DNA of 64,000 bases from Candidatus Iainarchaeum sp. (GTDB taxonomy: Archaea; Iainarchaeota; Iainarchaeia; Iainarchaeales; Iainarchaeaceae): contig JBDRLP010000027.1 in the NCBI GenBank assembly GCA_043812975.1, forward strand, positions 64,001-128,000. The letters are read 5' to 3'. The position numbers and the translations under genes were made by a program. Shown here in pieces: positions 10,924 to 61,750 of the stretch. Below the pieces are notes generated by a model. That model was not told the DNA's origin and did not search any database. It worked only from the letters and a program-made list of their open reading frames with translations. Numbering within the stretch: the first letter of the stretch is position 1; each line of letters starts with the position of its first letter.

Positions 10924-10967
10924 CTTTTCTTTTTCGAGAAAAAGAAAAGCTCGACCAAAAGAAAAAG
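10924..10967. repeat. Hairpin + mirror purine tail (triplex-geometry) element T1
   Basis: cttttctttttc-ga-gaaaaagaaaag-ctcgacc-aaaagaaaaag. Confidence 0.75.
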
Positions 10968-11043
10968 CTCTTTCCTACTGTAAAGAAAGAATCCTTTTGG
11001 TTACTATGGAAATTCGTTTGAAAACTATTAAAAAGCTTCCAAT

Positions 11044-11301
11044 TCATTTTGTTAGGAATTTTTCTATGTAATCTGATTTGCTTAGCACAGATATTACTCT
11101 TTTTGCCCTTACAAATACGAATGCTGCGGCAATTAGGGCCAACATTGCACTTACATACCGTAAAAATGCCTCAAAACTGTTTCCCTGGATTATTTGGATT
11201 GTAAATCCTTCTATAAATGCTGTAATGAATAATCCTATTGCCACTATTGTAACTACTGAAAAGAAAAATAGTTCAAAAATGTTCCTTGTTAGTATTTTCA
11301 T
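11044..11301 (-). CDS. Small two-TM membrane protein
   Basis: Two hydrophobic segments. Confidence 0.65.
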   Translation of the reverse strand: MKILTRNIFELFFFSVVTIVAIGLFITAFIEGFTIQIIQGNSFEAFLRYVSAMLALIAAAFVFVRAKRVISVLSKSDYIEKFLTK

Positions 11302-11337
11302 AATACTCCCTATTGCTTTTCAAATATAATAAGTTAA

Positions 11338-11856
11338 TTGTTCTGTTTTTTGCTTGACGGAACGTTTATATATAAATTAATTGTATTAATTTCAGGTGTA
11401 ATTGTGAGAAGACTTATTTATCTTAAAATTGCGGGCAAAGATGTGCATTTACCTAAACTTATAGGTTCTTTCATTATTTTTGCAGCATTTTTGTTATTTG
11501 TTCAGGCTTCAGCTTCTATGTTTGATTCTTGGGATTCAGCTAAGGAAGTTGACAGGTGTTTACAATTAGCTGCTGCTAATGAAGCTAGAGTAGAACCTGA
11601 TGAAAGCATTTATCCTGAATGCAGGGAAATGGCAAGAGATTTTTTAGGAATTTCAGTAAGATCTGATCAGGATGGTTTAAGTCTGAGACAATTCTGGGGC
11701 TCCTTGTTAGGGCCGATAGCTTCAGTGTTAATCTGGTTAGCTTTGTTATTTGTTGGTTTAATTCTTTACAGAAGCGGAGAACTTGTTCTTCCTATTGATG
11801 AAACAATCAGGGAAGTTCCTGATGTAACAAGAAGTTTCAAAAAAAGAAAGAAATAA
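11338..11856 (+). CDS. Two-TM membrane protein (true start probably GTG near 11404)
   Basis: Two TM helices flanking a Cys-pair loop; basic tail. Confidence 0.7.
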   Translation: MFCFLLDGTFIYKLIVLISGVIVRRLIYLKIAGKDVHLPKLIGSFIIFAAFLLFVQASASMFDSWDSAKEVDRCLQLAAANEARVEPDESIYPECREMARDFLGISVRSDQDGLSLRQFWGSLLGPIASVLIWLALLFVGLILYRSGELVLPIDETIREVPDVTRSFKKRKK

Positions 11857-11900
11857 TTTCTATTTTTAAAAAAAAGAAAATTTAGACAACAACTACAATG

Positions 11901-11961
11901 CGCCGTCTGCTCACGGCGGTAGAGCGTCCTGTTTTCAACAGGACTGGCTCACTTCGTTCGC
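11901..11961. repeat. GC-rich pseudoknot-hairpin element, copy B
   Basis: cgccgt-ctgctc-acggcg-gta-gagc-gtcctgtt-ttc-aacaggac, then gctcacttcgttcgc. Confidence 0.75.
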
Positions 11962-11963
11962 AA

Positions 11964-13373
11964 TTATAACGCTGTTGCCCTTACTTTATCATTAATTTCT
12001 ATCTTTCCTTTTTTTGCACCAATAACAAATTTGGTTTCTGCTTTTTCTGCAGCAGCCATAAGTCTTTTTGTTATTACTCCGTCAAATACTATTGCGTTTA
12101 CTTTCTTTTTGGTTTTTCCAAGTTCTGTTACAAGATCCTTAACCTTGACTTCTTTTACTACTGTATTTTTCTCGTCAAGCATTTTTGCTTTCATTGAACC
12201 TTTTAGTTCATCCAGAATTGGTTTGAATGTTTCTGTTTCTTCTTTAGTTAAAACAGAAATAAACCTAGGTCTCATTGGTCTTGGAGTAGGGGTTCTTGAA
12301 GTTCTTCGATCATCAGTTCTATCGTTTCTTTCATTCCTGTCCCAGTTATTTCTTGGAGGTCCTCTTCCCATAGGTGGTCTTTCGTTTCGCATAGGAGGTC
12401 CTCTTGAAGGTCTGTCCCTATAACTGTTTTCCCTTTGAGGTGCATTTTCTCTTGAGTAGTTATTTTCTCGCGGATAACTTTGTTCTCTTGGATAGTTATT
12501 TTCTCTTGGAGAGGTTTCTCGCGAATAATTATTTCTTTGAGGTTTTCTTTCTCCAAATTCTTCACTCGTTTCTAATTTTCTTTTTAGTGATTGGAGTATT
12601 TCTTTTCTTGTTAGTTCCTCAACTTCTTTTCCATCAGGGGCTTTTGCAATGTAAGCTACTTTTGCAATCTGAATAAGTTTTCTTGCGTTTAAGATTCCGC
12701 CTCTGTCCCCATCAATAAATAATGTTATTTCTTTGGTTTTGCTTAGTTCAGTTATTGTCGGAGAGATATTAGATCCATTCATTCCTATTACATTCTTTAT
12801 CTGATTTTTAAGCATATTAATAACATCAGCTCTTCCTTCGACAACTATTATTTCTTTACTTATTTCAATATCAGGTCCTGCTGGTAACTTATCCGGGCCA
12901 TAGCTTGATATGTCGGATGCTCTTACTTTTTCTCTTAATTCATCGCCAAGCATTTGTGTATCAGGTTTTGACTGGTTCATCATTTTTTTCAAAAGTTCCT
13001 GAGCTCTGGTTTTGATTTCATCTCTTTTGTTTGTTCTGGTATCTTCCATACTAATTATTTCAAATTTTGCTTCACTTGGACCTACTTTATCCACGCTTTC
13101 AATTCCTGCTGCCAATAAACTTGTTTCTGCCATGTCCATTGAAGAGGGAACTAGTACTTCTCCTTTGGTTCTTCCCATTGCAGTTTTGTGTTCAATTTCT
13201 ATTCTTCCGAGCTTTCCATTTTTCTGAAGCTCTTTAAGATCCATTTCGTCTCCAAGTAAACCTTCACTTTGTCCAAAAATTGCGCCAATTATATCTGGTT
13301 TGTCAACTATACCATCAATCTCAAATTTTAGTTTGATAACGTATTTTACTGTATTTACGTATGTTTTTGCCAT
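11964..13373 (-). CDS. dnaG: Archaeal DnaG (TOPRIM; exosome-associated)
   Basis: GAIFGQSEGLLG, IIVVEGRADV, DGDRGG, DGKEVEEL. Confidence 0.96.
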   Translation of the reverse strand: MAKTYVNTVKYVIKLKFEIDGIVDKPDIIGAIFGQSEGLLGDEMDLKELQKNGKLGRIEIEHKTAMGRTKGEVLVPSSMDMAETSLLAAGIESVDKVGPSEAKFEIISMEDTRTNKRDEIKTRAQELLKKMMNQSKPDTQMLGDELREKVRASDISSYGPDKLPAGPDIEISKEIIVVEGRADVINMLKNQIKNVIGMNGSNISPTITELSKTKEITLFIDGDRGGILNARKLIQIAKVAYIAKAPDGKEVEELTRKEILQSLKRKLETSEEFGERKPQRNNYSRETSPRENNYPREQSYPRENNYSRENAPQRENSYRDRPSRGPPMRNERPPMGRGPPRNNWDRNERNDRTDDRRTSRTPTPRPMRPRFISVLTKEETETFKPILDELKGSMKAKMLDEKNTVVKEVKVKDLVTELGKTKKKVNAIVFDGVITKRLMAAAEKAETKFVIGAKKGKIEINDKVRATAL

Positions 13374-13402
13374 TTAATCATCTCCTTTGTTTCACTTGAG
13401 AA

Positions 13403-13672
13403 TCAGAGTTTGAATGTGTTTTGGAGTTGTTCTTGAGTTATTTCTTTCAGGAGAATTTTTTTCTTTTTGCTTTTTTCTCCGCTTTTGATTTCTACTTTGG
13501 TTTGAAACAATTTTTCAAGCTCTTGGATCAGCTCTTTGTTGGCTTTTCCTTTCAATGCTTTTCCTTTTACCTTGACTCGCAAGGCGTTTGTCCATTGGTT
13601 CAGGCTAATGCTGAACTCCTTCGAATTCGGAATAACTTCCAAATTCATTTCAATATTTTTCAATTGTTTCAA
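13403..13672 (-). CDS. DUF167/YggU family protein
   Basis: VIPNSK, GKANKELI, IKSGEKSKKK. Confidence 0.85.
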   Translation of the reverse strand: MKQLKNIEMNLEVIPNSKEFSISLNQWTNALRVKVKGKALKGKANKELIQELEKLFQTKVEIKSGEKSKKKKILLKEITQEQLQNTFKL

Positions 13673-13833
13673 GTTGATTAATCACTAATAACTCAATAAT
13701 TTTTTCAACTGTAAAAACACAAACCCTAATTCTTGGTTAAGTGTAATTAGTTCCCTTAGGAACTCTATACATAAACCGCCAAGGAAATCTATATTAATGT
13801 TGCCTTTTTCGTATAAAATACCCTAAAAAGGGT

Positions 13834-14025
13834 TTATTTTGGCAATTTAACAATATTTCCACTGATTACTTGATAGGTGGCTCCTCTAATTGTTGTTTTA
13901 GCTGTTTCCCGCAACTGTCCACTATTCGGATCTCTTAAACGCATTAGTAATGTTCTGTAAAATGGGTCTTTTGGACCCATATTTTTATTACGCGAGATTT
14001 TACCTGCATTTCTTTTTTTTATCAT
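13834..14025 (-). CDS. Small basic hypothetical protein
   Basis: ORF fills the intergenic gap; K/R-rich N-terminus. Confidence 0.5.
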   Translation of the reverse strand: MIKKRNAGKISRNKNMGPKDPFYRTLLMRLRDPNSGQLRETAKTTIRGATYQVISGNIVKLPK

Positions 14026-14071
14026 TAAATTACCAAGTAAATTAAATACTCGCTAATATATATTCCTTCTT

Positions 14072-14476
14072 ATGCCCCGTTACAATAAAGGTGCAAATGC
14101 AGAACGTGAATTAATCAGAATGTTCTGGAAAGAAGGTTTTGCTGTTGCACGTACTGCTGGTTCCGGTAAGAATGCTTTGCCAATGCCTGATTTAATAGTG
14201 CTTAGTAAAAATCGTAAGATTGTAATTGAGGCTAAAGCCTGGCGTTCTAATTATTTAAATATTAATTTTGAACAAATGGAAGAACTTTTGAAGTGGAAAG
14301 AACTTGCTAATGCAGAGGTTTTTATTGCTTGGAAATACCCTAACAAGGGCTGGTTTTTCATTGACCCTAAGCACTTCAAAAAGAACAAGCATTATTCTCT
14401 TTCATTTCCAAAGGCCCAAAGAGCAGGCCTTCTTTTTGAGGTTTTGGTTGGAAAACAAAGCCAGCTTAAGCCTTAG
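14072..14476 (+). CDS. hjc: Holliday junction resolvase Hjc
   Basis: KGANAERELI, GFAVAR.AGSG, PDLI, IEAK. Confidence 0.93.
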   Translation: MPRYNKGANAERELIRMFWKEGFAVARTAGSGKNALPMPDLIVLSKNRKIVIEAKAWRSNYLNINFEQMEELLKWKELANAEVFIAWKYPNKGWFFIDPKHFKKNKHYSLSFPKAQRAGLLFEVLVGKQSQLKP

Positions 14477-14515
14477 CCGAGGTTTTAAAAATACTCCCAA
14501 ACCTATTTCTATTAT

Positions 14516-14647
14516 ATGTTAGAACTCGAATTAGTAATCAATCAGCTCGAAAAACAATATGAAAAAGAAAGGAGCATCAGAAAGAAAATAACTCTCGAAA
14601 ACGCAATCAGTGCTTTGAAAGAATATGAGCGCTTAAATCAGGAATAG
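14516..14647 (+). CDS. 43-aa helical small protein
   Basis: Manual ORF MLELELVINQLEKQYEKERSIRKKITLENAISALKEYERLNQE, TATA-like ttttaaaa upstream. Confidence 0.55.
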   Translation: MLELELVINQLEKQYEKERSIRKKITLENAISALKEYERLNQE

Positions 14648-14662
14648 TTTTTTTTGCTAATT

Positions 14663-15316
14663 TTAAATCACAGTCGCAACAAAAAGCATTGTTACTGCTA
14701 TTAGTGCCATAATAGTCATTATGATTACAGTGTCAATTGCTAATGGGTTCCCAAAGTTAATGAAGAATAAAAATGCGTCTCCTATTCCAAATAATATTCC
14801 TAATGCAAGTAATGAATTTCCAATCAGTTTGTTCCTCCCCCCTATTCCTTTTATTCTTACTTCATCCATGTCTACCTGAACCTGCCTTACTGCTTCTCCT
14901 AATTCGTTTAGTTTAGTTTTAACACGATCATTAAGGTCATTTACTTTCTGGATGTTATCTCCTATCTGATCTTGGAATGTTTTACTTTGCCCAGTAATAT
15001 CTTTTTCATATTCTTTCAGGTCACCTATTACTGCTTTTGTTAATTGTTGTCTTGAATCATTAGCAGTATTCATTGCTTCTTCCTGAATAAATTTTTTCAG
15101 GGTTGGTTTTTCCTGTTCAAGTTCCTTTTGCACAATTTTTTTTATTTCTGTTTTCAATAACGCAAAAGTATCTGCCTGCCCTAAAAGTAAAAGTCGTTTT
15201 GCTTTTTCAGGTTCAACGCCTAGGTCTTTTAGCGTGCTGATTATTTTTTCTTCGCTTTCACCTTCTCTTACCATCTTTTCGATGATTTCTATAATGCTTG
15301 TTTCTTGTTGTGCCAT
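14663..15316 (-). CDS. Coiled-coil protein with two C-terminal TM helices
   Basis: Heptad-rich body and hydrophobic C-terminus. Confidence 0.75.
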   Translation of the reverse strand: MAQQETSIIEIIEKMVREGESEEKIISTLKDLGVEPEKAKRLLLLGQADTFALLKTEIKKIVQKELEQEKPTLKKFIQEEAMNTANDSRQQLTKAVIGDLKEYEKDITGQSKTFQDQIGDNIQKVNDLNDRVKTKLNELGEAVRQVQVDMDEVRIKGIGGRNKLIGNSLLALGILFGIGDAFLFFINFGNPLAIDTVIIMTIMALIAVTMLFVATVI

Positions 15317-15975
15317 TATTCCACCAGTATTGGTTGTAATAAACGTTCGTTAGTATTTGAGGAACTCACATTAAAATAGATTGTGGTTTCGCCTTTTTGA
15401 GTTGGTAATAAGGAGTATTGTATTTTTTTGCATTCATCAGGCCCTATAGTAATAACATCTTTTTTAGACTGCTCTGAAAAGAAACCATTTTCATGCTCTT
15501 CTTCTATTTTAAACTGCTCATTCTTTTTTGATTTGTTACAAATATCAAGTGAAAAGCTGAATGTTTTTCCGAATAGTATTTCGCTTGGAAAGTTTGCTTT
15601 TATTGTGGTTGCCCCTTTTGCTCTTATCGCAATTAATTTTTCAAGAGTCATATGGTATGGAGCGCTAACAACCAGGGTAACCTGATTCTGATTAAGTCTA
15701 TTTAAATTAAGCAGTATCTTTTGTTTCGGTGCTAAAAACCTGAATTTGTTAAAATCAATTTCCAGGCCTCCTTCTTTATATTTTACTGAAATATTATGGA
15801 TTACTCGGTCAGTAGTATTAACCAGGTAAACTTCTTTTTCTCCTTCAGCCTCATTGAATTCTTCCTGAATTTCCAGTCCTCCGACAAACAGAAACAGGTA
15901 AACTATTAGTATTGCAAATGCAATATAAACAACTAGAAATACCATAAGTGTTTTTTTTCTTTGTTCTGGAAGCAT
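15316..15975 (-). CDS. Membrane-anchored beta-sandwich protein
   Basis: N-terminal TM helix, Ig-like alternation; stop overlaps the next start. Confidence 0.7.
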   Translation of the reverse strand: MLPEQRKKTLMVFLVVYIAFAILIVYLFLFVGGLEIQEEFNEAEGEKEVYLVNTTDRVIHNISVKYKEGGLEIDFNKFRFLAPKQKILLNLNRLNQNQVTLVVSAPYHMTLEKLIAIRAKGATTIKANFPSEILFGKTFSFSLDICNKSKKNEQFKIEEEHENGFFSEQSKKDVITIGPDECKKIQYSLLPTQKGETTIYFNVSSSNTNERLLQPILVE

Positions 15976-15997
15976 ACTTTAAGTAGGCTGTTTTTTA

Positions 15998-16747
15998 TTA
16001 TAAAACTATTTTTCCCCTTTGAAAATCAGTTATAAGTATACTTGCTGCTTCATTCAGGTTAGGAGAACCGCCTTTTGCTAGTTTTTTACGTTTAATTGCC
16101 AATTTTTCTAAAAACTCCTCTCCGTCTTTGGCTTTTATTCCGTAAAAATTTTCCATTTTTTCAGGGTTACTTTTCAATAATTCCTCAGCTACTTCTATTC
16201 CTGTTCCTTCTAAATCTTCAAGGCTTTGAATGTTTTTTGCTGAAAGTAAAACCATAAGAATTTCATCTTTTTCTTCAAGCGGAATAACTCCAGGACTGTC
16301 AATAAGCATTACTTTTGAACTTATTCTGACATACTGCATTCCTTTTGTAAAACCTGCAATTGCTCCGACTCCTGAACTTTTTTTTCCTTTAAGCATATTT
16401 ATTACACTGCTTTTTCCAGTATTAGGATAACCAACAATCCCTACTTTTACTTCTTTTTTTCCAGAAAGCTTTCCGATTGCTTCTCTTAATTTTATTGTCC
16501 CCTGTTTATTTTTTGCAGAAACAAAAACACTTCTTACTCCGATTAATTCTTTTTGTTTTTTCACTTTTTCTTCAGAAACAAGATCAGATTTATTCATAAC
16601 CAATAATAATTTTTTCCCGCTTAATTCAACAATCCTTTCAAGTTCAGAATTTCTGCTTTTAGTCGGAAACCTAGCGTCTATTATTTCAAGCACGATATCT
16701 GCTTCATCAACAACCTTTTTCACTATCTGCAAAAAACCTTTTTTCAT
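15998..16747 (-). CDS. Circularly permuted GTPase (YlqF/RbgA family)
   Basis: DAR, NKSD before GYPNTGKSS, DSPG. Confidence 0.93.
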   Translation of the reverse strand: MKKGFLQIVKKVVDEADIVLEIIDARFPTKSRNSELERIVELSGKKLLLVMNKSDLVSEEKVKKQKELIGVRSVFVSAKNKQGTIKLREAIGKLSGKKEVKVGIVGYPNTGKSSVINMLKGKKSSGVGAIAGFTKGMQYVRISSKVMLIDSPGVIPLEEKDEILMVLLSAKNIQSLEDLEGTGIEVAEELLKSNPEKMENFYGIKAKDGEEFLEKLAIKRKKLAKGGSPNLNEAASILITDFQRGKIVL

Positions 16748-16768
16748 TTTTAATCACTTATACTTCTT

Positions 16769-16990
16769 TCACATCGCTCCTTTAATCACATGGCCAGCTG
16801 TATTAAACAAATAAATTCCGCCAAATACTATTATTGCAAAAATCGCAAAAATTCCCATGGGGCTAGATTCGGAAAAAACATCATTTATTGTAAAAATCTG
16901 TTGCAAGTTCGTGAAGAAAGATAATAATACAAAGCTTCCGAAAACAACAAGTAATCCAATTGCTAAAAATATTGTTTGTTTGGGTTTCAT
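16769..16990 (-). CDS. Small two-TM membrane protein
   Basis: Two hydrophobic helices. Confidence 0.6.
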   Translation of the reverse strand: MKPKQTIFLAIGLLVVFGSFVLLSFFTNLQQIFTINDVFSESSPMGIFAIFAIIVFGGIYLFNTAGHVIKGAM

Positions 16991-17076
16991 CAGAGTAACT
17001 TTAGCCTTTTTTCCTATTTATTACAACCTATGCGTTGGAGTTAGAATAATATTGTTGTTCAAACATACTTTTATGT

Positions 17077-17685
17077 ATGGGTACTTCCATTCATGTTAAA
17101 CCAAGAAGAAAACCCAGAATAACTGTTGCTGAAAAATCAACTGTTCATCATTTCCGGCAAAAATTACCAACCACAATCCGTGGTTACCAGCCCATTTATT
17201 CAATGTTTCTAAAACATGCAATGCATGAAGGAAGGGTTTGCGGCAAATTGTTTGAAGTAGGGCCCCTTCACGGCAGGTTCATGAATTTTTTATGCAGAGA
17301 GCCATGTTTTGCACGCAACCCGGATTTTAGCGTGAGTGGCATTGAGTCTATTAAACTTGCGATTGACGCGATGCCAGAACCAGCCAAAAGCAGGACTGTC
17401 CACGCAAAAGTTGAATCCTTTGCTGAACAGCCAGGTGTGAAAGGGAGCGCTGATTTTGTTGTTGCAAGAGACCTGTTCAGTTCTCCCAGTGTATTCAAGC
17501 ATACCAAGCCAAAGATATTTCATGCGATTTCTCGTCTTGTAAGGAAAGGGGGCAAAGTTTTTTTGGAGGTTGGCGAGCCAGGCACCCTCCCAAACAAAAA
17601 GGAAATCTCAGTAGAGGGTTTCCAAGTGATTGATTCTATTTCGCAACCGGCTCTGTACCTTCTGGTTCTTGAAAAAGTTCGTTAA
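17077..17685 (+). CDS. Divergent class I SAM methyltransferase-like protein with basic N-terminal leader
   Basis: LFEVGPLHG motif I, ADFVVARDLF, LVRKGGKVFL; leader VKPRRKPR. Confidence 0.6.
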   Translation: MGTSIHVKPRRKPRITVAEKSTVHHFRQKLPTTIRGYQPIYSMFLKHAMHEGRVCGKLFEVGPLHGRFMNFLCREPCFARNPDFSVSGIESIKLAIDAMPEPAKSRTVHAKVESFAEQPGVKGSADFVVARDLFSSPSVFKHTKPKIFHAISRLVRKGGKVFLEVGEPGTLPNKKEISVEGFQVIDSISQPALYLLVLEKVR

Positions 17686-17720
17686 ACCACCTCAGAACAG
17701 AATTTATGTTATGTTTGTCT

Positions 17721-18426: not shown

Positions 18427-18430
18427 TTAA

Positions 18431-20029: not shown

Positions 20030-20091
20030 CGCCGCAGACCCGCGGCGGTAGGGCGTATTATCTTCGTCCCTTAAGGGGGACTCGATAATAC
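20030..20091. repeat. GC-rich pseudoknot-hairpin element, copy C
   Basis: cgccgc-agaccc-gcggcg-gta-gggc-gtattatc-ttc...tc-gataatac. Confidence 0.75.
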
Positions 20092-20097
20092 TTGCGT

Positions 20098-20159
20098 TGT
20101 GTAGGAAGTCTGATCTGTGTATAAAGTCTGATTCTTGTGTAAAAAGCAAAACAAGAACA
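20098..20159 (+). repeat. GTGTA-NN-AAGTC repeat cluster 1
   Basis: Three units at 18-20 bp period ending tgtgtaaaaagcaaaacaagaaca. Confidence 0.8.
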
Positions 20160-34545: not shown

Positions 34546-34620
34546 GGGCCTGTAGCTTAGCCTGGATTGAGCGTTCGCCTTCGGAGCGAAAGATCGGGGG
34601 TTCGAATCCCTCCAGGCCCT
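34546..34620 (+). tRNA. tRNA-Arg(TCG)
   Basis: gggcctg/caggccc, ttcgc-cttcgga-gcgaa, GGTTCGAATCC. Confidence 0.95.
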
Positions 34621-34624
34621 TAAC

Positions 34625-34678
34625 CTTTTTCTTTCTCTTGAGAAGAGAAACAAAAAGCTTAACCAAAAAGAAAGAGAA
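34625..34678. repeat. Triplex-geometry element T2
   Basis: ctttttctttctctt-gag-aagagaaacaaaaag-cttaacc-aaaaagaaagagaa. Confidence 0.75.
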
Positions 34679-41618: not shown

Positions 41619-41966
41619 TTGGGGAAAATACTTTTAGCAGTTCTTGGAATAGGAAAAGGTACTTGGGGTCACGTAGCTAGGCTTATTTCAGAAGAAGAAT
41701 GGGATAAAATTCTTCTGATTTCTAATGAGTGGGGTAAAGAAAATTTTGCTCCTGCAAAAGAATGCGAATGGATTATTGTTAATAACAGAGCAGGCTTTGA
41801 AATAATCAAAGACGAAATAAAAAACAATCTTCCTGATAGCGAGTTAGCAGTTTCACTTATCAGCGGTTCAGGAAAAGAACACATGGCTATTCTTGTTGCT
41901 TTGAAAGCAAAAAAATCAAAGTACGAAATAGTAATCCTTACTGGCGAAGGAACAAAATATTATTAA
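41619..41966 (+). CDS. Stand-alone Rossmann/CARF-like protein
   Basis: LLAVLGIGKGTW, DKILLI, AVSLISGSGKEHMA. Confidence 0.55.
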   Translation: MGKILLAVLGIGKGTWGHVARLISEEEWDKILLISNEWGKENFAPAKECEWIIVNNRAGFEIIKDEIKNNLPDSELAVSLISGSGKEHMAILVALKAKKSKYEIVILTGEGTKYY

Positions 41967-41973
41967 TCGCACT

Positions 41974-42026
41974 TTTTCTTTTCTCTTTCCAAGAGAAAAT
42001 AAAACCTGCACTAAAAGAAAAGAGAA
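41974..42026. repeat. Triplex-geometry element T3
   Basis: ttttcttttctctt-tcc-aagagaaaataaaa-cctgcact-aaaagaaaagagaa. Confidence 0.75.
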
Positions 42027-53935: not shown

Positions 53936-53950
53936 TCATATCGCCTGTTT

Positions 53951-55548: not shown

Positions 55549-55715
55549 CCTGTTAGAGTTTGGATAATATCATTTCTGTTTTGAATTACTTGCATCTGTG
55601 CCTTGTCAGCCATTCGATCCATACCAAAAGCAATTATGGTTACGGCGATTACCAACATCAGTGCAAAGAGCACTGTAAATAAGTATTCCACCGAAACCTG
55701 AGCTTTTTCATTCAT
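55545..55715 (-). CDS. Small pilin (56 aa)
   Basis: Manual ORF MNEKAQVSVEYLFTVLFALMLVIAV... Confidence 0.85.
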   Translation of the reverse strand: MNEKAQVSVEYLFTVLFALMLVIAVTIIAFGMDRMADKAQMQVIQNRNDIIQTLTG

Positions 55716-55730
55716 TAAAAATCACTAGTT

Positions 55731-55997
55731 TTACGACGCTGTTGCAGTACAGTTTGGGTATGTTCCGCCGCATGTATAGGTAATCTGGTCAACTAGTACG
55801 GTACCGCCGCAAGCTCTTGGATTAGCCAAAGCTGCTTGTTGTGTACACAATGATGTAGCTGCTGATAACCCTGTTTGTGTTCCTCCGGTATCTGCAATAC
55901 TTAACAGCAGTGTGATAACTATGACTGCGACCAGTACTGCTCCTCCAATTAAGAGAAGATATTCTAGTGCTCCTTGTCCTTTTTTATCCAAAATCAT
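55731..55997 (-). CDS. Probable major pilin
   Basis: KKGQ/GALEYLLLIGGAVLVAVIVITL; strong SD ggaggt. Confidence 0.88.
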   Translation of the reverse strand: MILDKKGQGALEYLLLIGGAVLVAVIVITLLLSIADTGGTQTGLSAATSLCTQQAALANPRACGGTVLVDQITYTCGGTYPNCTATAS

Positions 55998-56026
55998 TAC
56001 CTCCTTTGCGTTTTATTGAATAAATA

Positions 56027-56191
56027 TTATGTGCTTGTGGACTCAATGGCCTCATTAATCCGAGTCCCGCCTTCTTCTACTACATTTTGTTTTATTCCGA
56101 GCATTATAAATGTTACAACTAATATTACTGCTCCAAGTAAAACTAATATTTCTACTGAAGTTTGTCCTTTTTCTTCTTGTAACAATTTCAT
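56027..56191 (-). CDS. Small pilin (54 aa)
   Basis: Manual ORF MKLLQEEKGQTSVEILVLLGAVILVV... Confidence 0.85.
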   Translation of the reverse strand: MKLLQEEKGQTSVEILVLLGAVILVVTFIMLGIKQNVVEEGGTRINEAIESTST

Positions 56192-57141
56192 AATGTTCCC
56201 ACCAATCCCGCGGCAAATAGCTCTGCTGCGACATAGGCTGAATAAGCTATAAACAGAAGCACTGGGAAGTATATAATACTTTTCCCCATGTTACCATCTC
56301 TCATGATTGCCATCATTAAAGCGGTCGCTAAAGTTTCTATGAAAATGTAAGCCTGTATTGAAAGATTGATTATGTTAAGCGCTGACTCTGCAGATGCCTG
56401 TTCTGCCTGAGATGCTACTGAGGAAGCAGCGCTAATTAATAGTGTTGAAATTGTTGACACAAACCCGAAAATCATTGGCGCTACGAACCCTCCGGCCACA
56501 AACATAAAGATAACCTGCATGACTGTTCTTGCTTTTCTGTCTTTGTTAATCCTATGAGATTCTCTTACATCTTCGGCTATTTCTTCTAATACACTTGCAA
56601 GTCCTGCCCCTGCATAAACAGAATCAATGATAATTGTAACTGTTCTCTGAACAAGTCGTGAATCAACATTCTCTGAAAGACTTTTCAATGAGTTTTCAAA
56701 GTTTTCTCCTTCCTCAAGTTTTCTTAAAACCTCATTCATTTCTTTTTTCAAAGGACCATATTCTGCATTTGCGATTTCCCTTAAAGCATATTCATAAGTC
56801 CCTCCTGCCCTTAAAGTATCAGCCATTTGTCTTAATGCATCAGGAAGAGCTTCTTCTATCTGATCAATTCTTCCTTTTGCTTTTAAGTAAGGGTAACCAA
56901 TAAGAATGTCAACCAGAACCATGAAAACAAGAATTCCGAACTGAACGCTTTGTTTTAATCCAAGTATTAGTTCAACAAAAAAGAAAGTTGCTATTCCTGC
57001 AACTATTGAAATTATTCCTGCAAGTATTATCCATAAGAATGGATCTACTTTGAATTCTGCACTTCGCAAATAACGCGAGTATTTTTGCAGTAAAGGAGAA
57101 TTCTTTAACAATGGTGTTTTTTCTATGATTCTTAATGCCAT
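56188..57141 (-). CDS. Pilus platform protein (T2SS-F/TadC-like)
   Basis: IEEALPDALRQMA..LRAG, YGPLKKE. Confidence 0.92.
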   Translation of the reverse strand: MALRIIEKTPLLKNSPLLQKYSRYLRSAEFKVDPFLWIILAGIISIVAGIATFFFVELILGLKQSVQFGILVFMVLVDILIGYPYLKAKGRIDQIEEALPDALRQMADTLRAGGTYEYALREIANAEYGPLKKEMNEVLRKLEEGENFENSLKSLSENVDSRLVQRTVTIIIDSVYAGAGLASVLEEIAEDVRESHRINKDRKARTVMQVIFMFVAGGFVAPMIFGFVSTISTLLISAASSVASQAEQASAESALNIINLSIQAYIFIETLATALMMAIMRDGNMGKSIIYFPVLLFIAYSAYVAAELFAAGLVGTL

Positions 57142-57145
57142 TTTT

Positions 57146-58279
57146 TCACACTCTCGGTTGGGATATTTTTAGGTAAAATATTAGGAAGCCTAGAACAAGA
57201 GGCATTCCAACTAAATACATTAATGCTATTGCTATTGGTGAAATAGCTACGCTTCCAACTGAAATTGGAGCGTTTGTTACTGATCCTATAATTGCCACAA
57301 ATACTGGGGCTACTATTGCAATGAAAATATATATTACTCCGAAGAAGTTCATTCTTTCTGCAAAGTCTCTTATTTTTACTCTCATATCAAAACTTACATC
57401 TTCTGCTATAGTGTTCATTATTTTTGATAAGTTTCCTCCGGTTTTTAGTGCTCTTATAATGTGAAATAATGCGCTTCGGAGCGCTTTTGATTGTGTTCTT
57501 AATGCAAAGTGCCTTAAAGCATCTTTTGTGTCAGTTCCTTCTTCAATTTCACTAATAGTTCTTGAAAATTCTTCACTTAAAATTCCATAATCAGAAGTTG
57601 CAATTGTTTGTATTGTTTTGTACAAACCAATTCCTGCTTTTAGTTCTGTTGACATGTGCCTTAAAGCAAAAGGAAGTTCTATACTTACCGCGTCTCCTCT
57701 TTGTTGTGCTTTGCTTTTTGGTATCATCAGCATTATCAGCATAAAAAAAAGACCAACTACTCCTCCGAATATAACTGAAAAAGTATAAGGGAGTTCGAAA
57801 AACCAGCTAGTTGCTGCTATTATTGCAAAAGTAAACAAACCTACAAGTGCTGCTGAGGCAATTGAAACCGCCAGCCATTGATTTAAGGAATATTTCATGT
57901 TTGCTGAGTAAAGATAATATCTAATATCGCTTGCTAAAGGTAGCCTTTTTATTAAATTAGAAATCGGCTGGAAGGGCAACCTGAATAATAAGTAAAATGA
58001 CCCTAACTGTTTTATTGCAGGGGATTGGAATTCTTGTAAATCTTCAACTTTTTGAATATTAATTTTTGCCTGTTCTCCTTCAGCAATAATACCTCTTAGT
58101 TCTCCAAGCTTTCCGCCAACTTGTTCAAATTCAACACCCTGTTCCCTGTATTTCTTTTTCATCCGGCCGACAATTTTTTCAACCTGGTTATAATCAACAG
58201 TTTCTGGTTTTTTATCAGAATCTTTTTTTTTCTTGTTTTTTTCTTCAATTGTTTTTTTCAGATTATCAAGGCTTGGCAT
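57146..58279 (-). CDS. Pilus platform protein (T2SS-F/TadB/C-like)
   Basis: ELPFALRHMSTELKAG, YGILSEEF, TGGNL. Confidence 0.92.
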   Translation of the reverse strand: MPSLDNLKKTIEEKNKKKKDSDKKPETVDYNQVEKIVGRMKKKYREQGVEFEQVGGKLGELRGIIAEGEQAKINIQKVEDLQEFQSPAIKQLGSFYLLFRLPFQPISNLIKRLPLASDIRYYLYSANMKYSLNQWLAVSIASAALVGLFTFAIIAATSWFFELPYTFSVIFGGVVGLFFMLIMLMIPKSKAQQRGDAVSIELPFALRHMSTELKAGIGLYKTIQTIATSDYGILSEEFSRTISEIEEGTDTKDALRHFALRTQSKALRSALFHIIRALKTGGNLSKIMNTIAEDVSFDMRVKIRDFAERMNFFGVIYIFIAIVAPVFVAIIGSVTNAPISVGSVAISPIAIALMYLVGMPLVLGFLIFYLKISQPRV

Positions 58280-58281
58280 TT

Positions 58282-61200
58282 TTATCGACCTTTAAACAAA
58301 TATTTTTTCAATTCCGGTGCAACTTCACTCATCTTTCGTATTTTTTGTTTTGCCAATTTTAAAAGGAACTCTGTTCTTTTTTCAATTTCTTTTTCAATTT
58401 CTTTTTCAGAAATTCCTGTCATAGTTGCCAATAATTGAAGGTATTTAACTTGTGTTTTTGTCTTTTTAAGGGAATCGGTTTTGGCATCTCTGCTGTAAAT
58501 TAACTCGGTTTTGGCCTTTCCTTTAAGAACATCAACGACCTCAGAAATTTCAGTTATTCTTCTTATTGTTCCTGTTTTTTTATCATGTAATCTGTGTTGG
58601 ACTACAATAAAGTTTAATCCTGAAAGCATTACTTCCGGAACATTCATTGGAGGGCTTGTAACTCTTACTATTGTTTCTTGAGGGCTGTTTGCGTGCACTG
58701 TTCCGAGCGAGTTTCCCACTATCATGCCTTCTGCCACAAAGTTGTGCGGTTTTCTCCCACTCATCTTTTTTTCATTAATTGTTAGGTCGTACACAAAACC
58801 ATTGTAATGATATGAGTGTATTGCGACTATTTTATCCCAGAATATGTCGCTTTTGCCAAGCATTCTGAGTTTTGGCGTGTCAATTCCAGTTTCTTCGAAT
58901 GCCTCAGCCAGTTTTAGTGTAACTTCTCTGCTTGGCGTTCTTTCTTTTCTCTTGTAAAAGCTAATCAAACCCTGTGTTACTCCTGCCCTTCTTGCTATCT
59001 CTGAATTGCTGTAACCTTTTTGTTTTGCCTTTTCAAGAAGATTTATTATAATGTCATTGCAATTTATGAGATCAACATTTGTGTTTGCCTTTTTGTTTTG
59101 CCTTAGTAATTCCTCTGTTTTTGCGATTTTTTGTTCGTACTTTATAGGGTATGTTTCATAGAATTTTTTTACCTGACTGATTCCGTAAATGTATAATCTG
59201 AACCACCTGCTGTTGTGTGATTTTGACTCGTATTTCCTTGAAATAATTCCTTCAGTTAATAATGCGTATTTGAAAAAATCAATGTAGTATTCGTTTCCGC
59301 ATGTGAACACTATAGCATTATTTTCCGCATCTATATGCCCTTCTGCGTCGAAAAATCCTGCTACAAAAGATTTTAGGTCTGAAGTATAGTGTGAATTTGA
59401 CATTTTTGTTTTTGCCCTATCTCCTGCGGGGATATCCAAGAGTTTTTGGATGGTTCTGGATTTTTCAATCCCGCTCACATGAGCCTCGTAACAATCCTTT
59501 TCTGGGCGGGGATAAACAATTCCAACATGTGTGTCATTGAGTTTTTCTTTCATGAAACGTGTGAATTTTGGTATTATTTGTTCTTCTTCCGCGAAAAGGC
59601 TTATCCTTCCTTCATTACAGAGATATTCCTTTCCATTTTTTTTCCTTATTCTTTGATAATCAAGAATATTTCCGTCTCCGTGAAGAAGTCCTGACCAGTA
59701 CTCGATTTCTTTTTCCGATACATTTTCATCTCTAATTAGTGTTCGTGGTGTTGCTATGCTAATCCCTTCCACAAGTTTTTCAGCATTAACCTGGATTATG
59801 TCATTGTCCAAAGTGTAGAATGGATGGTTTCCAGTGGCTGTTATTTCTGCCCCCGAAGCGAGTTTTATGTGGTAAACTTTTCCCTGGTATGGTTTTCTTC
59901 TTGCTTCAACGATTTCTGATTTGAAAATTTTTCCATCGGAATCCATTGAATTGATGTACTCGTTTTTGACTTCGCACACTTCCCAATCTTTTTCTCTTCG
60001 GATTTTGTTTTTGCTTAATTGTTCTTCAACAAACTCATCCATAGACCTCAAACCAGAAGTCAAAGCAATTTTTGTGTTTCCTGTTAAACACCCATCATGT
60101 CCTGTATTGAATGCAGTGAATAATGAAAATGCTTCATCGTGTCTGATTTCTCCTACAATAATCCTGTCAGGACGCATTCTCAAAGAGTTTTTGGTTAAAA
60201 TATCAAGTGTTAATTCTCCTGTGCCTTCCAGTCCCGGAGGTCGTGCTTCCATTCTGATCCAGTGTTTTAAAGGAATGTTCAATTCAGCTGTATCTTCTAT
60301 CGAAATTATTCTTTCGGTTTCCGGAATAAAGCTTGCCAAAACGTTTAGTGTTGTTGTTTTTCCAGAACCAGTGCCACCAGCTATCAAAATATTTGCAGGT
60401 CTTGTATTAAGTCCCTCAACACATACCCACAAAAATGCTGCAGCTTCTGCATTTAGTGTTCCGTAAATAATCAAATCTATTATCGAGTAAGGATCATCTC
60501 TGAATTTTCTGATTGTTAATGTTGAGCCCTGAACTGATGAAGGAGGTATTGTTGCATTAACACGACTTCCGTCAGGAAGTCTTGCATCCAATAACGGGCT
60601 GCTTATGTCAACTCTTCTGCCTATTTGTCTTGCAATTCTGTTAATTAAATCCTGAATCTCGTTATCAGAATAAAATTCAATGTTTGTAAGCATCATTTCA
60701 TGCTCTCTGTGAAAAACATAAACCGGAAGTTTTGGCCCTATAACCATTATTTCCTCCAGTTTATCATCCTTGATAAGGTCATCTATCAACCCATAACCAA
60801 CCATTTCTCTGACAACAGCATCAGCATAAAATTCATACCTTGTTTTTGGGATATTTAATTCAGGAGAATCCCTTAGTATTTCCAAAATTTTTTCATAGTA
60901 AACATTTCTTCTTTGTTCCTGGTTTCTAATCCTGTAAGGAGTTATGCTGACTATTCTTGTGGCTGCTTCTTTAATTGTTTTAATAATTGTTTTTTCGCTT
61001 CCAACAGGTCTTGGCACAGGCGTCCAGTAATACAGAAGCGGTTCTCCTGGTATTTCATAAATTTTTGTGTTACCGTATTCTTCCAGTAATTTTTTGTTTG
61101 ATTTTTGCAGTTGTTTTTCTGTTTGTGATTTTTGTTCTTCCGGAACAGCATCCACGCTGTCAGGAAGAACTTTTTCCTGCGGAGGAAGTGCTTTTTTTAT

Positions 61201-61608
61201 TTCCTCAATTTTTTTCTTTGCCTCTTCTGCTTTTTTTGCAGCTTCATCATTTTCTTTTGCAAGTATCTGGGCTTGGGTGTGTTCAGCAGGGATTTCTATA
61301 TTGTTAATACTAAACGGTTTTGATACTGGTTCCTTTTTTTCTGCGACAGCATCAAGTTTTAAGTTTAGTTCATGTTCGGGTTTTTCTTCTGAAATAGGTT
61401 CTTCTATTGTCTCTTCTGCTTTTTTCACTTCATCCATCAGTTTTTTGGTTGTATCAGAAACAGGTTTTGCAGCTGGAGAAGGTTGTTGAACTGGTTTTGG
61501 TTCAGGTATTGGTTGTTCCACTGGTTTTTTCTGCGGTTCAGCATCTTCTCCTTTTTTGCCTTTTTTTGATTTTATTTTGTGAAATAAATCATCCATATAG
61601 TCTGCCAT
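58282..61608 (-). CDS. Type IV pilus assembly ATPase (CpaF/TadA family) with intein
   Basis: GGTGSGKTT, IEDTAEL, RMRPDRIIVGE, NTGHDG|SLGTVH; start set at MADYMDD. Confidence 0.93.
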   Translation of the reverse strand: MADYMDDLFHKIKSKKGKKGEDAEPQKKPVEQPIPEPKPVQQPSPAAKPVSDTTKKLMDEVKKAEETIEEPISEEKPEHELNLKLDAVAEKKEPVSKPFSINNIEIPAEHTQAQILAKENDEAAKKAEEAKKKIEEIKKALPPQEKVLPDSVDAVPEEQKSQTEKQLQKSNKKLLEEYGNTKIYEIPGEPLLYYWTPVPRPVGSEKTIIKTIKEAATRIVSITPYRIRNQEQRRNVYYEKILEILRDSPELNIPKTRYEFYADAVVREMVGYGLIDDLIKDDKLEEIMVIGPKLPVYVFHREHEMMLTNIEFYSDNEIQDLINRIARQIGRRVDISSPLLDARLPDGSRVNATIPPSSVQGSTLTIRKFRDDPYSIIDLIIYGTLNAEAAAFLWVCVEGLNTRPANILIAGGTGSGKTTTLNVLASFIPETERIISIEDTAELNIPLKHWIRMEARPPGLEGTGELTLDILTKNSLRMRPDRIIVGEIRHDEAFSLFTAFNTGHDGCLTGNTKIALTSGLRSMDEFVEEQLSKNKIRREKDWEVCEVKNEYINSMDSDGKIFKSEIVEARRKPYQGKVYHIKLASGAEITATGNHPFYTLDNDIIQVNAEKLVEGISIATPRTLIRDENVSEKEIEYWSGLLHGDGNILDYQRIRKKNGKEYLCNEGRISLFAEEEQIIPKFTRFMKEKLNDTHVGIVYPRPEKDCYEAHVSGIEKSRTIQKLLDIPAGDRAKTKMSNSHYTSDLKSFVAGFFDAEGHIDAENNAIVFTCGNEYYIDFFKYALLTEGIISRKYESKSHNSRWFRLYIYGISQVKKFYETYPIKYEQKIAKTEELLRQNKKANTNVDLINCNDIIINLLEKAKQKGYSNSEIARRAGVTQGLISFYKRKERTPSREVTLKLAEAFEETGIDTPKLRMLGKSDIFWDKIVAIHSYHYNGFVYDLTINEKKMSGRKPHNFVAEGMIVGNSLGTVHANSPQETIVRVTSPPMNVPEVMLSGLNFIVVQHRLHDKKTGTIRRITEISEVVDVLKGKAKTELIYSRDAKTDSLKKTKTQVKYLQLLATMTGISEKEIEKEIEKRTEFLLKLAKQKIRKMSEVAPELKKYLFKGR
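58711..60090 (-). mobile_element. Intein (460 aa) with LAGLIDADG endonuclease and HTH
   Basis: CLTG start, ATGNHPF, GLLHGDG/GFFDAEG, VYDLTI...VGN|S. Confidence 0.93.
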
Positions 61609-61647
61609 AGAAGTCGGAATAATTGAGGGTTTTGTATAATATAAACC

Positions 61648-61750
61648 TTTTTCTTTCTTTTCAAAGAAAGAAACCGGACAGAAAAAAATTTTTGTACGAC
61701 CTAGCAAAACTGGAAGTTTTGCACGGAAGCTTCACCAAAAAGAAAGAAAA
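61648..61750. repeat. Triplex-geometry element T4 with internal structured insertion
   Basis: tttttctttctttt-c-aaagaaagaaa-[53 nt]-aag-cttcacc-aaaaagaaagaaaa. Confidence 0.65.

Follow-up and report, generated by a model that had tools for sequence, protein, structure and literature searches.

A dispersed repeat of Iainarchaeum-like archaea with a selected three-way sequence register and a predicted intramolecular triple helix

Four intergenic sites in a Candidatus Iainarchaeum-like (DPANN) genome carry an arrangement of pyrimidine and purine tracts that raises the question of whether they are selected triple-helical elements or simple low-complexity sequence, and what such an element would do at the gene borders where it is found. 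An earlier note on the window, by which we mean the whole stretch of 64,000 nucleotides analysed here, described at these sites a pyrimidine (Y) arm, a short loop, a complementary purine (R) arm, a linker and a purine tail, and this layout is seen at all four (Table 1). The tail is, as described, the exact parallel complement of the Y arm (11/11, 14/14, 14/14 and 14/14 at sites 1–4), the sole mismatch at sites 2 and 3 lying in the R arm with the tail intact; given the composition and register of each tail, the joint chance probability of the four is 1.5e-9. The four sites do not stand alone: they are the in-window members of a family with 27 copies (23 short and 4 long) of a repeat of about 55 bases in this 1.24-Mb genome, and with hundreds in its relatives.

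Table 1. Positions in the window of the four elements, their parts and the adjoining genes.
Feature	Positions	Strand	P1a	First junction	Y arm	Loop	R arm	Second junction	P1b	Link	Tail	Remarks
tRNA-Val(tac)	10848..10920	-										5' end flush with P1 of element 1
Element 1, short form	10920..10967	+	10920-10922 (CGA)	10923-10924 (CC)	10925-10935	10936-10937	10938-10948	10949-10950 (GC)	10951-10953 (TCG)	10954-10956 (ACC)	10957-10967	11/11 triplet columns consistent
tRNA-Arg(tcg)	34546..34620	+										3' end flush with P1a of element 2
Element 2, short form	34621..34678	+	34621-34623 (TAA)	34624-34625 (CC)	34626-34639	34640-34642	34643-34656 (one C for G)	34657-34658 (GC)	34659-34661 (TTA)	34662-34664 (ACC)	34665-34678	Y-tail 14/14, Y-R 13/14
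ORF	41619-41966											Element 3 starts 2 nt past its stop codon
Element 3, short form	41969..42026	+	41969-41971 (GCA)	41972-41973 (CT)	41974-41987	41988-41990	41991-42004 (one T for G)	42005-42006 (CC)	42007-42009 (TGC)	42010-42012 (ACT)	42013-42026	Y-tail 14/14
Element 4, long form	61643..61750	+	61643-61645	61646-61647 (CC)	61648-61661		Part 1 61663-61673; end 61727-61729 (AAG)	61730 (C)	61731-61733	61734-61736 (ACC)	61737-61750	Y-tail 14/14; 53-nt two-hairpin insert in R arm, 61674-61726, within A5 run

Analysis of 96 parsed copies, representing 42 distinct arm sequences, reveals that the triple rule is obeyed in 1177 of 1201 columns formed by the two arms and the tail; among the inconsistent columns the odd one out is the R arm in 16, the Y arm in 4 and the tail in 4. 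Perfect own-copy matches over 11 nt join Y arm and tail in 84 of 88 copies (95%), and both Y arm and R arm, and R arm and tail, in 73 of 88, against 18–21% in the between-copy control and 21% when a tail is compared with the arms of other copies. The Y–tail relation is the best kept of the three and persists where the R arm is broken or gives way to other sequence (in the long forms, in C39 and C14, and in the CC/GG type). Its parallel columns covary, for example with CG 46, UA 32 and other 1, to a degree equalled by none of 500 shuffles, and the covariation collapses once the partner columns are slid. A switch between alternative hairpins, with the tail antiparallel to the Y arm, was rejected: in 94 of 96 copies the parallel register gives more matches than any antiparallel one (99.3% vs. 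78.6% matched for the best of these). Cytosines are kept apart, with 5 CC dinucleotides vs. 15.5 expected, a value that none of 2000 shuffles reached, and the register is equally strict (97–99%) in all contexts. When the genome was searched for an exact 9-mer arm with its reverse complement and its parallel complement, the comparison with shuffled sequence that the earlier note had called for, 20 loci were found vs. 1–2 in each of five dinucleotide shuffles. These results show that the three-way register is maintained by selection, and the claim of a selected triple-helix register, as opposed to low complexity, is upheld by covariation across all 42 arms. The geometry of the Y.R-Y layout proposed for the minus strand is correct, and no other model brings Y arm and tail, the best-kept pair, into direct contact. 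Canonical H-DNA is a poorer fit, since it would use the R arm as half of its mirror repeat and this tract is less conserved than either of the others.

On the plus strand of the window the element consists of a closing helix of 3 bp (P1), a conserved pyrimidine–pyrimidine mismatch, a stem of 9–15 bp, a loop of 2–8 nt, a link of 3 nt and the tail; one stem arm is all pyrimidine, the other all purine, and the purine tail mirrors the purine arm base for base. The linker of 7–8 nt recorded before is present, but it is not a plain linker, as 5–6 nt of it are base-paired with sequence 5' of the Y arm. P1 covaries, one of its pairs being CG in 40 copies, AU in 21, GC in 10, UA in 8 and GU in 1, and 98.7% of its cells are paired vs. 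81% in shuffles. Wobbles single out no strand in P1 (G.T 7 vs. A.C 6), and the stems hold 7 T.G, of which 5 are bulged-G artefacts, vs. 3 C.A. In copies with 11-nt arms and loops of 7–8 nt, 3–5 bases after the tail pair with the loop. Such pairing, of at least 3 bp, occurs in 18 of 22 long-loop copies vs. 56% of pairs taken from different copies, and by reading of the 22 pairs the two partners covary, an ACA loop being accompanied by TGT in 11 of 12 cases and a GCA loop by TGC in 4 of 5; short-loop copies (2–3 nt) are without this second helix. R arm and tail together form a homopurine mirror repeat about an 8-nt spacer, perfect over 11 nt in the 73 copies counted above. The first T-run of the Y arm is 5–6 long in 73 of 96 copies. 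A GC-rich two-hairpin element at window positions 20032–20100 was considered as a relative of the insert in element 4, but the insert profile matched four places in the genome and none in the window, and no relation was found.

Matches to the element model occur in 21 of 22 genomes of the host's family, 19 of which hold 9–67 each, and in 54 of 141 genomes sampled across the phylum; within the one family the number of copies runs from 0–2 to 67 per genome. The same tRNA sites are filled in three to four genera with arms that differ yet remain self-consistent. At one orthologous site the element is found in 7 of 11 genomes and is missing from a genome of the same genus, and both arms and P1 differ in every occupied genome. 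Partial link-plus-tail units lie in tandem beside full copies. The family may turn over between sites in the manner of bacterial REP elements. No flanking direct repeats were found at the one orthologous site examined, and the elements have no terminal inverted repeats: P1a and the Y arm at the left are the parallel, not the reverse, complement of the tail at the right. The 94.5%-complete genome yielded 0 matches to the Y1 (HUH) transposase PF01797 and no reverse transcriptase, and its one TnpB-like gene lies on a contig (C9) on which no element is catalogued.

Most elements abut tRNA or other stable-RNA genes. The contacts with tRNA genes noted before, of site 1 with the 5' end of tRNA-Val and of site 2 with the 3' end of tRNA-Arg, are confirmed, the first base of tRNA-Val(tac) even being the last base of the P1 helix of element 1, and among the 96 copies the neighbour on the P1 side is a tRNA 5' end in 16 and a tRNA 3' end in 15, and 18 copies lie inside a tRNA intron (together 49/96). 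Elements on contig C12 follow the 16S, 23S and RNase P RNA genes, and in the five cases in this genome where a coding sequence (CDS) end faces P1 the distance from stop codon to P1 is -3 to 2 nt. The Y arm begins 5 nt past the ends of tRNAs, RNase P RNA and stop codons, where its T5–6 runs resemble those that follow the genome's remaining tRNAs. The single orientation reported for the four sites holds within the window only, as both orientations occur genome-wide: the minus version is sense in 16 tRNA leaders, the plus version in 15 trailers, in 10 of 10 single-element introns and in four rRNA-operon spacers. Typing of 51 intergenic contexts with a crude gene caller and a codon-usage caller gave 10 convergent, 30 tandem and 11 divergent regions. 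A strict terminator placement was rejected, as divergent regions are not depleted and the neighbouring CDSs show just a strand bias (54 sense to the minus version, 28 not). In five tRNAs of the genome the element lies between the likely promoter and the gene; by eye, TATA-like boxes are upstream of the elements that precede tRNAs and not inside them. Also by eye, a promoter within the element for the downstream tRNA was judged unlikely, the TATA position being a T/C tract unlike the tRNA promoters of this genome, and an independent small-RNA gene was discarded since the sequence ahead of the minus-strand start has no TATA-like box at a constant spacing. The elements create open reading frame artefacts, disturb tRNA-intron calls and could be taken for low-complexity sequence in annotation.

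We tentatively favour, with a confidence that stays somewhat short of even, an element that is specific to the lineage of Iainarchaeum-like DPANN archaea, dispersed in their genomes, selected as a single-strand intramolecular triple helix and placed, REP-like, at transcript boundaries. The most coherent form would be that of the minus strand, in the order pyrimidine tract, link, pyrimidine tract, loop, purine tract, which is predicted to be an extended H-type pseudoknot with the 5' pyrimidine tract in the major groove of the hairpin and with U.A-U and C+.G-C triples (T.A-T in DNA). This purine-centred triplex is favoured because the Y–tail relation is the best kept, persists past breaks in the R arm and has isolated cytosines. 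In transcripts the fold may provide a compact, nuclease-resistant block at RNA boundaries, among them sites 0–2 nt past stop codons, and where it is flush with a tRNA 5' end, cleavage by RNase P would produce a 3' end that is blunt and triple-helical, as it does on MALAT1; the T-tracts could supply oligo-T termination signals in both directions. Several points count against this explanation. The T5–6 runs could stop transcription too early for the whole fold to form, the divergent contexts (11/51) need neither a terminator nor a 3' cap, and the use of both orientations as sense with equal strictness is not predicted by a function of the minus-strand RNA alone. A further reading, possible but doubtful, has both transcribed versions in use within a genome-wide selected family of helices of 11–15 triples, where tRNA processing would excise the minus-version pseudoknot (U.A-U/C+.G-C) flush at its closing helix. 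Leaders would be cut by RNase P, trailers by RNase Z and introns by the splicing endonuclease, and the products would be either free small RNAs or RNA ends that are blunt and withstand exonucleases; if true, archaea would have a multi-copy equivalent of the MALAT1-mascRNA arrangement, and the family would be the first prokaryotic nucleic-acid element defined by three-way covariation.

The equal strictness of the register whichever strand is sense, together with the equal rarity of G.T and A.C, also fits an element that acts as DNA, an alternative that we regard as somewhat unlikely. Both strands of an opened duplex would fold, the minus strand as a pyrimidine-motif and the plus strand as a purine-motif triplex hairpin, into a triplex cruciform or an H-DNA-like structure that stalls or insulates polymerases, or absorbs supercoils, at the edges of strongly transcribed genes for stable RNAs. 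DNA supports both triplex motifs, which RNA is not known to do. The mirror repeat of R arm and tail speaks for the same view, as does the block to RNA polymerase in vitro that portions of three papers ascribe to H-DNA and homopurine tracts (PMC4538819, PMC3561996, PMC11667243). Such a block would however be harmful in the tRNA introns (18/96 copies) and in the spacers of the 16S-tRNA(Ala)-23S cluster (four copies, co-transcription being assumed), and five tRNAs have an element between likely promoter and gene. Moreover, GyrA was not found in the 94.5%-complete genome, leaving steady negative supercoiling unsupported, the R arm, which makes up one half of the H-palindrome, is less conserved than the two other tracts, and P1 and the pseudoknot are superfluous for H-DNA.

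The fast replacement of copies at orthologous sites is equally compatible with a selfish element. A REP/MITE-like mobile element without host function, whose fold is recognised by the mobilising machinery and for which tRNA-gene ends, introns and the first bases past stop codons are targets or the only harmless landing sites, would account for the range of copy number, for the site filled in 7 of 11 genomes with different arms and P1 each time, for the tandem partial units and for the absence of a bias against divergent regions; the single orientation of all ten single-element introns is expected if the other were harmful. We nevertheless hold it to be distinctly unlikely, as neither a reverse transcriptase nor a Y1 (RAYT/IS200) transposase was found, the lone TnpB-like gene is on a contig with no catalogued element, terminal inverted repeats and target duplications were not seen, and the same tRNA sites are filled across three to four genera. 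We know of no copying process that passes a change to a mirror-image tract, and selection on the fold is therefore required even for a selfish element, which bears on who benefits from the fold and not on its existence. Very improbable, finally, is an explanation by a plain oligo-T terminator that carries a hairpin and works in both directions, or by a switch between two hairpins, with the mirror register as a by-product of low-complexity A/G and T/C sequence. The T5–6 runs 5 nt past gene ends are in its favour, and a folding program pairs Y arm with tail for quasi-symmetric arms, e.g. at site 4; it is contradicted by the dominance of the parallel register, by the shuffle and between-copy controls and the joint probability of the four tails, and by elements in introns that must be read through.

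Few natural long triple helices are known. No description of this family was found in the openly accessible literature on archaeal and tRNA triplexes, intramolecular triplexes in transcription, Iainarchaeota and DPANN tRNA introns, and the abstract and searched passages of a 2026 review mention no triple-helix family from archaea (PMC13541005). The hundreds of natural variants that keep a three-strand register constitute a covariation data set for the rules of triplex formation, for example those on lone C+, on the mismatches that are tolerated and on breaks in a strand. Their flush placement at tRNA ends and introns, and past rRNA and RNase P RNA, links the predicted triple helix to the transcription or processing of stable RNAs in a poorly known archaeal group.

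Among 4227 Rfam models none matched the elements at the gathering threshold, only tRNAs being matched in the window; the best sub-threshold match, Sacc_telomerase on the minus strand (28.5 bits vs. a gathering value of 80), covers a U-rich strand and hairpin of the Saccharomyces model and, far below threshold, implies no homology. The sequence of an archaeal oligo-T terminator, at least five T on the sense strand shortly past a gene end, is present, and the same runs occur inside tRNA introns. Like REP/BIME elements and MITEs, the elements are short, structured, multi-copy and intergenic, often lie right after genes, and vary in copy number with turnover of sites. In contrast to REP/BIME elements they have three tracts in place of a plain palindrome, and no cognate RAYT/Y1 transposase was found in the 94.5%-complete genome; the terminal inverted repeats of MITEs are lacking, no target duplication was seen at the one orthologous site examined, and the strong tie to tRNA introns and to the ends of tRNA, rRNA and RNase P RNA genes sets them apart from both. 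With H-DNA, as treated in portions of PMC11667243 and PMC4538819, they share the homopurine mirror symmetry of R arm and tail about a short (8-nt) spacer, but they have in addition the Y arm, a third tract by which the triplex would be completed in a single strand, as well as a closing helix that covaries and a pseudoknot, and their tracts are short (11–15) and A-rich. In telomerase RNA and in the SAM-II and preQ1-II riboswitches, as in the predicted fold of the minus strand, a pyrimidine loop 1 runs along the deep groove of stem 2, and the hairpin loop takes part in a short second helix. Both features of such an H-type pseudoknot, the second helix and the in-register pyrimidine loop, are found here (18 of 22 long-loop copies, with a position covarying from A/G to T/C); 3–5 triples in those single functional RNAs compare with 11–15 consecutive predicted ones in a multi-copy repeat. 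In tract composition there is a likeness to the MALAT1, MEN-beta and ENE triple-helix elements, which reportedly act in RNA stability (work of Wilusz, Brown, Tycowski and Steitz). These have two U-rich tracts and one A-rich tract in one RNA, which build some ten or more U.A-U triples in the major groove, interspersed with C+.G-C, and ENE-type elements are also found in multi-copy transposable-element RNAs. The ENE clamps a 3' tail in a U-rich internal loop, whereas the iainarchaeal element, which has no such clamp, places its Hoogsteen tract 5' of a simple hairpin in a pseudoknot topology; it is moreover archaeal, has a covarying P1 and occurs in both orientations. The two have in common the same set of tracts on one predicted strand, U.A-U with interspersed C+.G-C. 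In MALAT1 and MEN-beta the 3' end is made by RNase P at a tRNA-like structure downstream; a tRNA directly follows the iainarchaeal element in 16 of 96 copies, where RNase P, whose RNA is present in the genome, would cut at the base of the predicted triple helix and so create its 3' end.

Inspection of the sequence at the four sites bears out the layout described in the earlier note: a pyrimidine tract (Y arm), a short loop, the complementary purine tract (R arm), seven to eight further bases and a distal purine tail are present at each of them. The tail is the parallel, base-by-base complement of the Y arm (11/11, 14/14, 14/14 and 14/14 at sites 1 to 4) and is thus the mirror image of the R arm, in which, as claimed, the sole mismatch of sites 2 and 3 is located. 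The DNA studied has a G+C content of 34%, which, with an intron-containing tRNA at 6392–6497, pointed to an archaeon. With the composition and register of every tail taken into account, the joint probability of the four exact tails is 1.5e-9. The 1.24-Mb genome was scanned for exact 9-mer arms with the reverse complement within 10 nt and the parallel complement within 110 nt, which yielded 20 loci versus one or two in each of five dinucleotide shuffles. Of the decoy geometries in the same scan, a direct one yielded 2 loci and a mirror of the first arm yielded 6; a third, in which the R arm is copied directly, yielded 17, which are partly identical to the real loci in a looser 8-mer listing and are found via their internal repetitiveness.

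From 109 near-full profile hits in this genome and in fetched loci, 103 distinct copies were parsed, and the 96 with arms of at least 9 nt were retained, the remaining seven being fragments or mis-parses. These 96 copies carry 42 distinct arm sequences, and Y arm, R arm and tail agree column by column (the triple rule) in 1177 of 1201 columns. Within positions 1 to 11, tail and own Y arm are perfectly complementary in parallel in 84 of 88 copies, versus 21% when the Y arms of other copies are taken, and the agreements between Y arm and R arm and between R arm and tail are each perfect in 73/88. Parallel Y/tail columns of the model-based alignment vary together (CG 46, UA 32, other 1; UA 54, CG 20; in further columns CG 62, UA 11; UA 69, CG 9); covariation this strong arises in none of 500 shuffles and breaks down once the partner columns are slid. 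The selected three-strand register that had been proposed, as opposed to low complexity, is therefore supported both by the own-arm matches and by the covariation. Since polymerase-based copying, we infer, cannot transmit changes into a mirror-image tract, each self-consistent variant would need selection on the register, whatever its later spread.

On the Y-first strand, which is the plus strand of the window at all four sites, the element consists of P1a (3 nt), a junction (CC, sometimes CT), the Y arm (9–15 nt), the loop, the R arm, a second junction (GC, CC or CG), P1b (3 nt), a link of 3 nt (ACC 32, GCG 12, GCC 11, ACT 7, ACG 6, GGG 5, others 23) and the tail. P1a and P1b form a closing helix with Watson–Crick covariation, one pair being CG 40, AU 21, GC 10, UA 8 and GU 1; 98.7% of the P1 cells are paired, compared with 81% after shuffling, and the covariation is matched by none of 500 shuffles. 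The 7–8 nt "linker" noted earlier is indeed located between R arm and tail but, as P1a and P1b covary, most of it is helix. P1 and stem are separated by a conserved mismatch, which reads C.C on the Y-first strand and G.G on its complement. In the sub-class with 11-nt arms and loops of 7–8 nt, three to five bases following the tail pair with the loop, forming a pseudoknot by which the distal end of the tail is fixed to the hairpin top. Such pairing reaches at least 3 bp in 18 of 22 long-loop copies, versus 56% for pairs drawn from different copies; among these 22 pairs, read by eye, ACA loops go with TGT after the tail in 11/12 cases and GCA loops with TGC in 4/5. Long forms contain a two-hairpin segment of about 50 nt inserted within the A5 run of the R arm, with the agreement of Y arm and tail kept over 12–14 nt; the inserts on contigs C3 and C17 are alike, and that of site 4 differs in sequence. 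A 1141-aa ORF (58282–61707, TTG start) extends into the long form at site 4 (61608–61707); an ATG near 61608 is probably the true start, and the purine/pyrimidine tracts would thus inflate ORF calls there.

Where one tract departs from the other two, it is the R arm in 16 cases (about five of them a bulged G), the Y arm in 4 and the tail in 4. Complementarity between Y arm and tail continues past the interruption of the R arm in long forms, and persists where a GC hairpin replaces the R arm (contigs C39 and C14) and, in the GGG-link type, despite a basal R-arm mismatch (CC against GG). Direct contact between Y arm and tail would occur in two models only, a minus-strand fold or a Y-arm RNA on the tail duplex. 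In the minus-strand fold, the complement of the Y arm would be the central purine strand, its Watson–Crick face read by the R-arm complement and its Hoogsteen face by the tail complement; P1 and the pseudoknot would also be accommodated, and the whole would correspond to an H-type pseudoknot with loop 1 following stem 2 along its deep groove. Within the arms, cytosines are isolated (5 CC dinucleotides in 42 arms, where 15.5 would be expected, with none of 2000 shuffles as low), which we take to fit the rules for C+.G-C triples. A plus-strand fold would require a purine-motif triplex, which is well known for DNA and, to our knowledge, not established for RNA. P1 wobble pairs (G.T 7 versus A.C 6) single out neither strand. 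Standard folding, a method that does not model triplexes and gives modest Z-scores here (-0.9 to -3.3), recovers the P1-plus-stem hairpin for either strand at sites 1 and 2, and at site 3 for the plus strand; the site 3 minus strand, like either strand of site 4, is instead folded with its tail region against its Y-arm region. Whereas the register is observed, we infer the intramolecular triple helix itself, which is best satisfied by the minus strand, the one on which the earlier note placed a Y.R-Y layout.

The P1 side of the 96 copies faces tRNA 5' ends (16), tRNA 3' ends (15), CDS starts (23) or CDS stops (11), and 18 copies lie within tRNA introns according to ARAGORN. Junctions with tRNAs are flush (-2 to +4 nt), as at the two window sites correctly described as abutting tRNA genes, one at a 5' end and one at a 3' end, and where a CDS end faces P1, as in five cases in this genome, P1 and stop codon are -3 to 2 nt apart; on the tail side, CDS stops (31) and starts (17) are found at looser distances. 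Neighbouring CDSs lie opposite the Y-first strand in 54 cases and on the same strand in 28, intergenic locations comprise 10 convergent, 30 tandem and 11 divergent cases, and the triple rule is equally strict across contexts (97–99%). Introns with a single element carry it in tRNA sense orientation (10/10), and four introns contain an inverted pair. Among the tRNA calls, an intron-containing tRNA at window 6392–6497 was matched by Rfam and missed by the default ARAGORN run, an ARAGORN tRNA-Glu(ctc) with a 1233-nt intron (C53:4440–5767) is probably false, and at C58:9342–9400 a tRNA-Asn and a T-run are followed by an apparent T-arm and 3' acceptor half of another tRNA. In the rRNA locus L077 (C12:1–6160), 16S is followed by a long and then a short element, tRNA-Ala, an element, 23S and a further element, and RNase P RNA lies about 1.1 kb beyond the 23S gene. 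The 16S, tRNA-Ala, 23S and RNase P RNA with their elements are all on the rRNA sense strand, an element following each gene end; these genes are either separate transcription units or their T-runs are read through. By eye, tRNAs without an element have TATA-like boxes 30–38 nt upstream, and in five tRNAs of this genome with an upstream element such boxes lie beyond it, so the minus version is probably transcribed there as a leader. A conserved GC-rich segment of about 55 nt, whose terminal hairpin (type CCACAGT-CGCA-ACTGTGG) is flush with tRNA position 1, occurs upstream of several tRNAs and represents another leader family, which has no relation to the triplex elements.

Positions of the elements and associated features (C, contigs of this genome; other coordinates refer to the window)
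Feature	Position	Strand	Remark
Site 1	10920-10967		short form
Site 2	34621-34678		short form
Site 3	41969-42026		short form
Site 4	61643-61750		long form
tRNA-Val	10848-10920	minus	5' end touches site 1
tRNA-Arg	34546-34620	plus	3' end touches site 2
Long-form insert	61674-61726		same R-arm A5 point
Long-form insert	C3:191-239		same R-arm A5 point
Long-form insert	C17:7957-8005		same R-arm A5 point
Long-form insert	C12:1053-1105		same R-arm A5 point
RNase P RNA	C12:5796-6107	rRNA sense	about 1 kb past post-23S element
Element after RNase P RNA	C12:6108 (start)	rRNA sense
Truncated units	C25:40839-40934; C12:4741-4772; locus L106
GC-rich leader segments	C20:34829; C12:19286; C25:51223; C42:1272; C52:151		upstream flanks
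GC-rich leader segment	C23:17994		downstream flank
Shared site	tRNA-Val(tac) 5' flank		3 genera
Shared site	tRNA-Tyr intron		4 genera
Shared site	tRNA-Ala(tgc) 3' flank		3 genera
Shared site	tRNA-Ser(tga) 5' flank		3 genera

The family is widely distributed. This genome contains 23 full short copies and four long ones (C3:160, C12:1027, C17:7930 and site 4), in both orientations, so that the single orientation reported for the four sites holds within the window but not genome-wide. A covariance model trained on 22 of these copies gave 24 matches in the genome itself. Of 22 further genomes in its family, 19 had 9–67 matches each, one had two and two had none; elsewhere in the order, 1–9 matches occurred in 8 of the 18 genomes sampled from its other families, and these scans together gave roughly 570 matches. 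In a phylum-wide sample, 54 of 141 genomes were matched (E 1e-4 or better). These searches covered this phylum; the one wider search, an exact 28-letter pattern against one genome per species (185,579 species), yielded 20 stretches, all in archaeal records, entitled Iainarchaeum (9), Diapherotrites (1), "Altiarchaeales archaeon" (1) and, for the rest, "archaeon" or "uncultured archaeon". The copies also turn over. The same tRNA sites are occupied across genera by elements that differ in arms and P1, each being self-consistent. Downstream of the gene at 41619–41966, an element is present at 7 of 11 orthologous loci, all seven different, one of which shows drift in its R arm and none in its tail; the four loci without it include that of a same-genus genome with a plain T-run at the spot. 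Truncated units, which retain only the final A's of the R arm together with P1b, link and tail, occur in stacks next to full copies, and form on the other strand arrays of T-rich tracts spaced by GGTACAGC. Neither a reverse transcriptase nor a Y1 transposase nor GyrA was found in this genome (94.5% complete), and its one TnpB-like gene lies on a contig without a catalogued element.

Our working model, plausible though held tentatively, is that the element folds in transcripts into a compact block that would resist exonucleases at RNA boundaries; if RNase P cut at a tRNA downstream, the 3' end left behind would be blunt and triple-helical, the T-tracts would provide termination signals, and the element would have spread in a REP-like manner. 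Its main difficulty is strand symmetry, both versions being present in sense RNA and equally conserved. This symmetry keeps alive a DNA-level fold of both strands, but the copies in introns and rRNA spacers must be read through, and we give such a fold a limited chance. Turnover would be accounted for by a purely selfish element, which would nevertheless still require the fold and is, in our view, rather unlikely. We regard a plain terminator or a two-hairpin switch as highly improbable. The parallel register exceeds the best antiparallel one, shifts being allowed, in 94 of the 96 copies and equals it in the other two, whose arms are mirror-symmetric, with mean agreements of 99.3% versus 78.6%; the tail thus does not serve as a second partner in a hairpin, and its role as antiparallel partner of the Y arm in such a switch is ruled out.

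No published description of the family was found in the literature searched, which included a portion of PMC13541005, PMC4538819, PMC3561996 and PMC11667243, and Rfam has no family for the element. The best sub-threshold Rfam hit, on the minus strand, is the Saccharomyces telomerase model (28.5 bits against a gathering threshold of 80), a resemblance only, which covers the U-rich strand and hairpin of that model. The blunt triple-helical 3' end proposed in our working model would resemble that of MALAT1.
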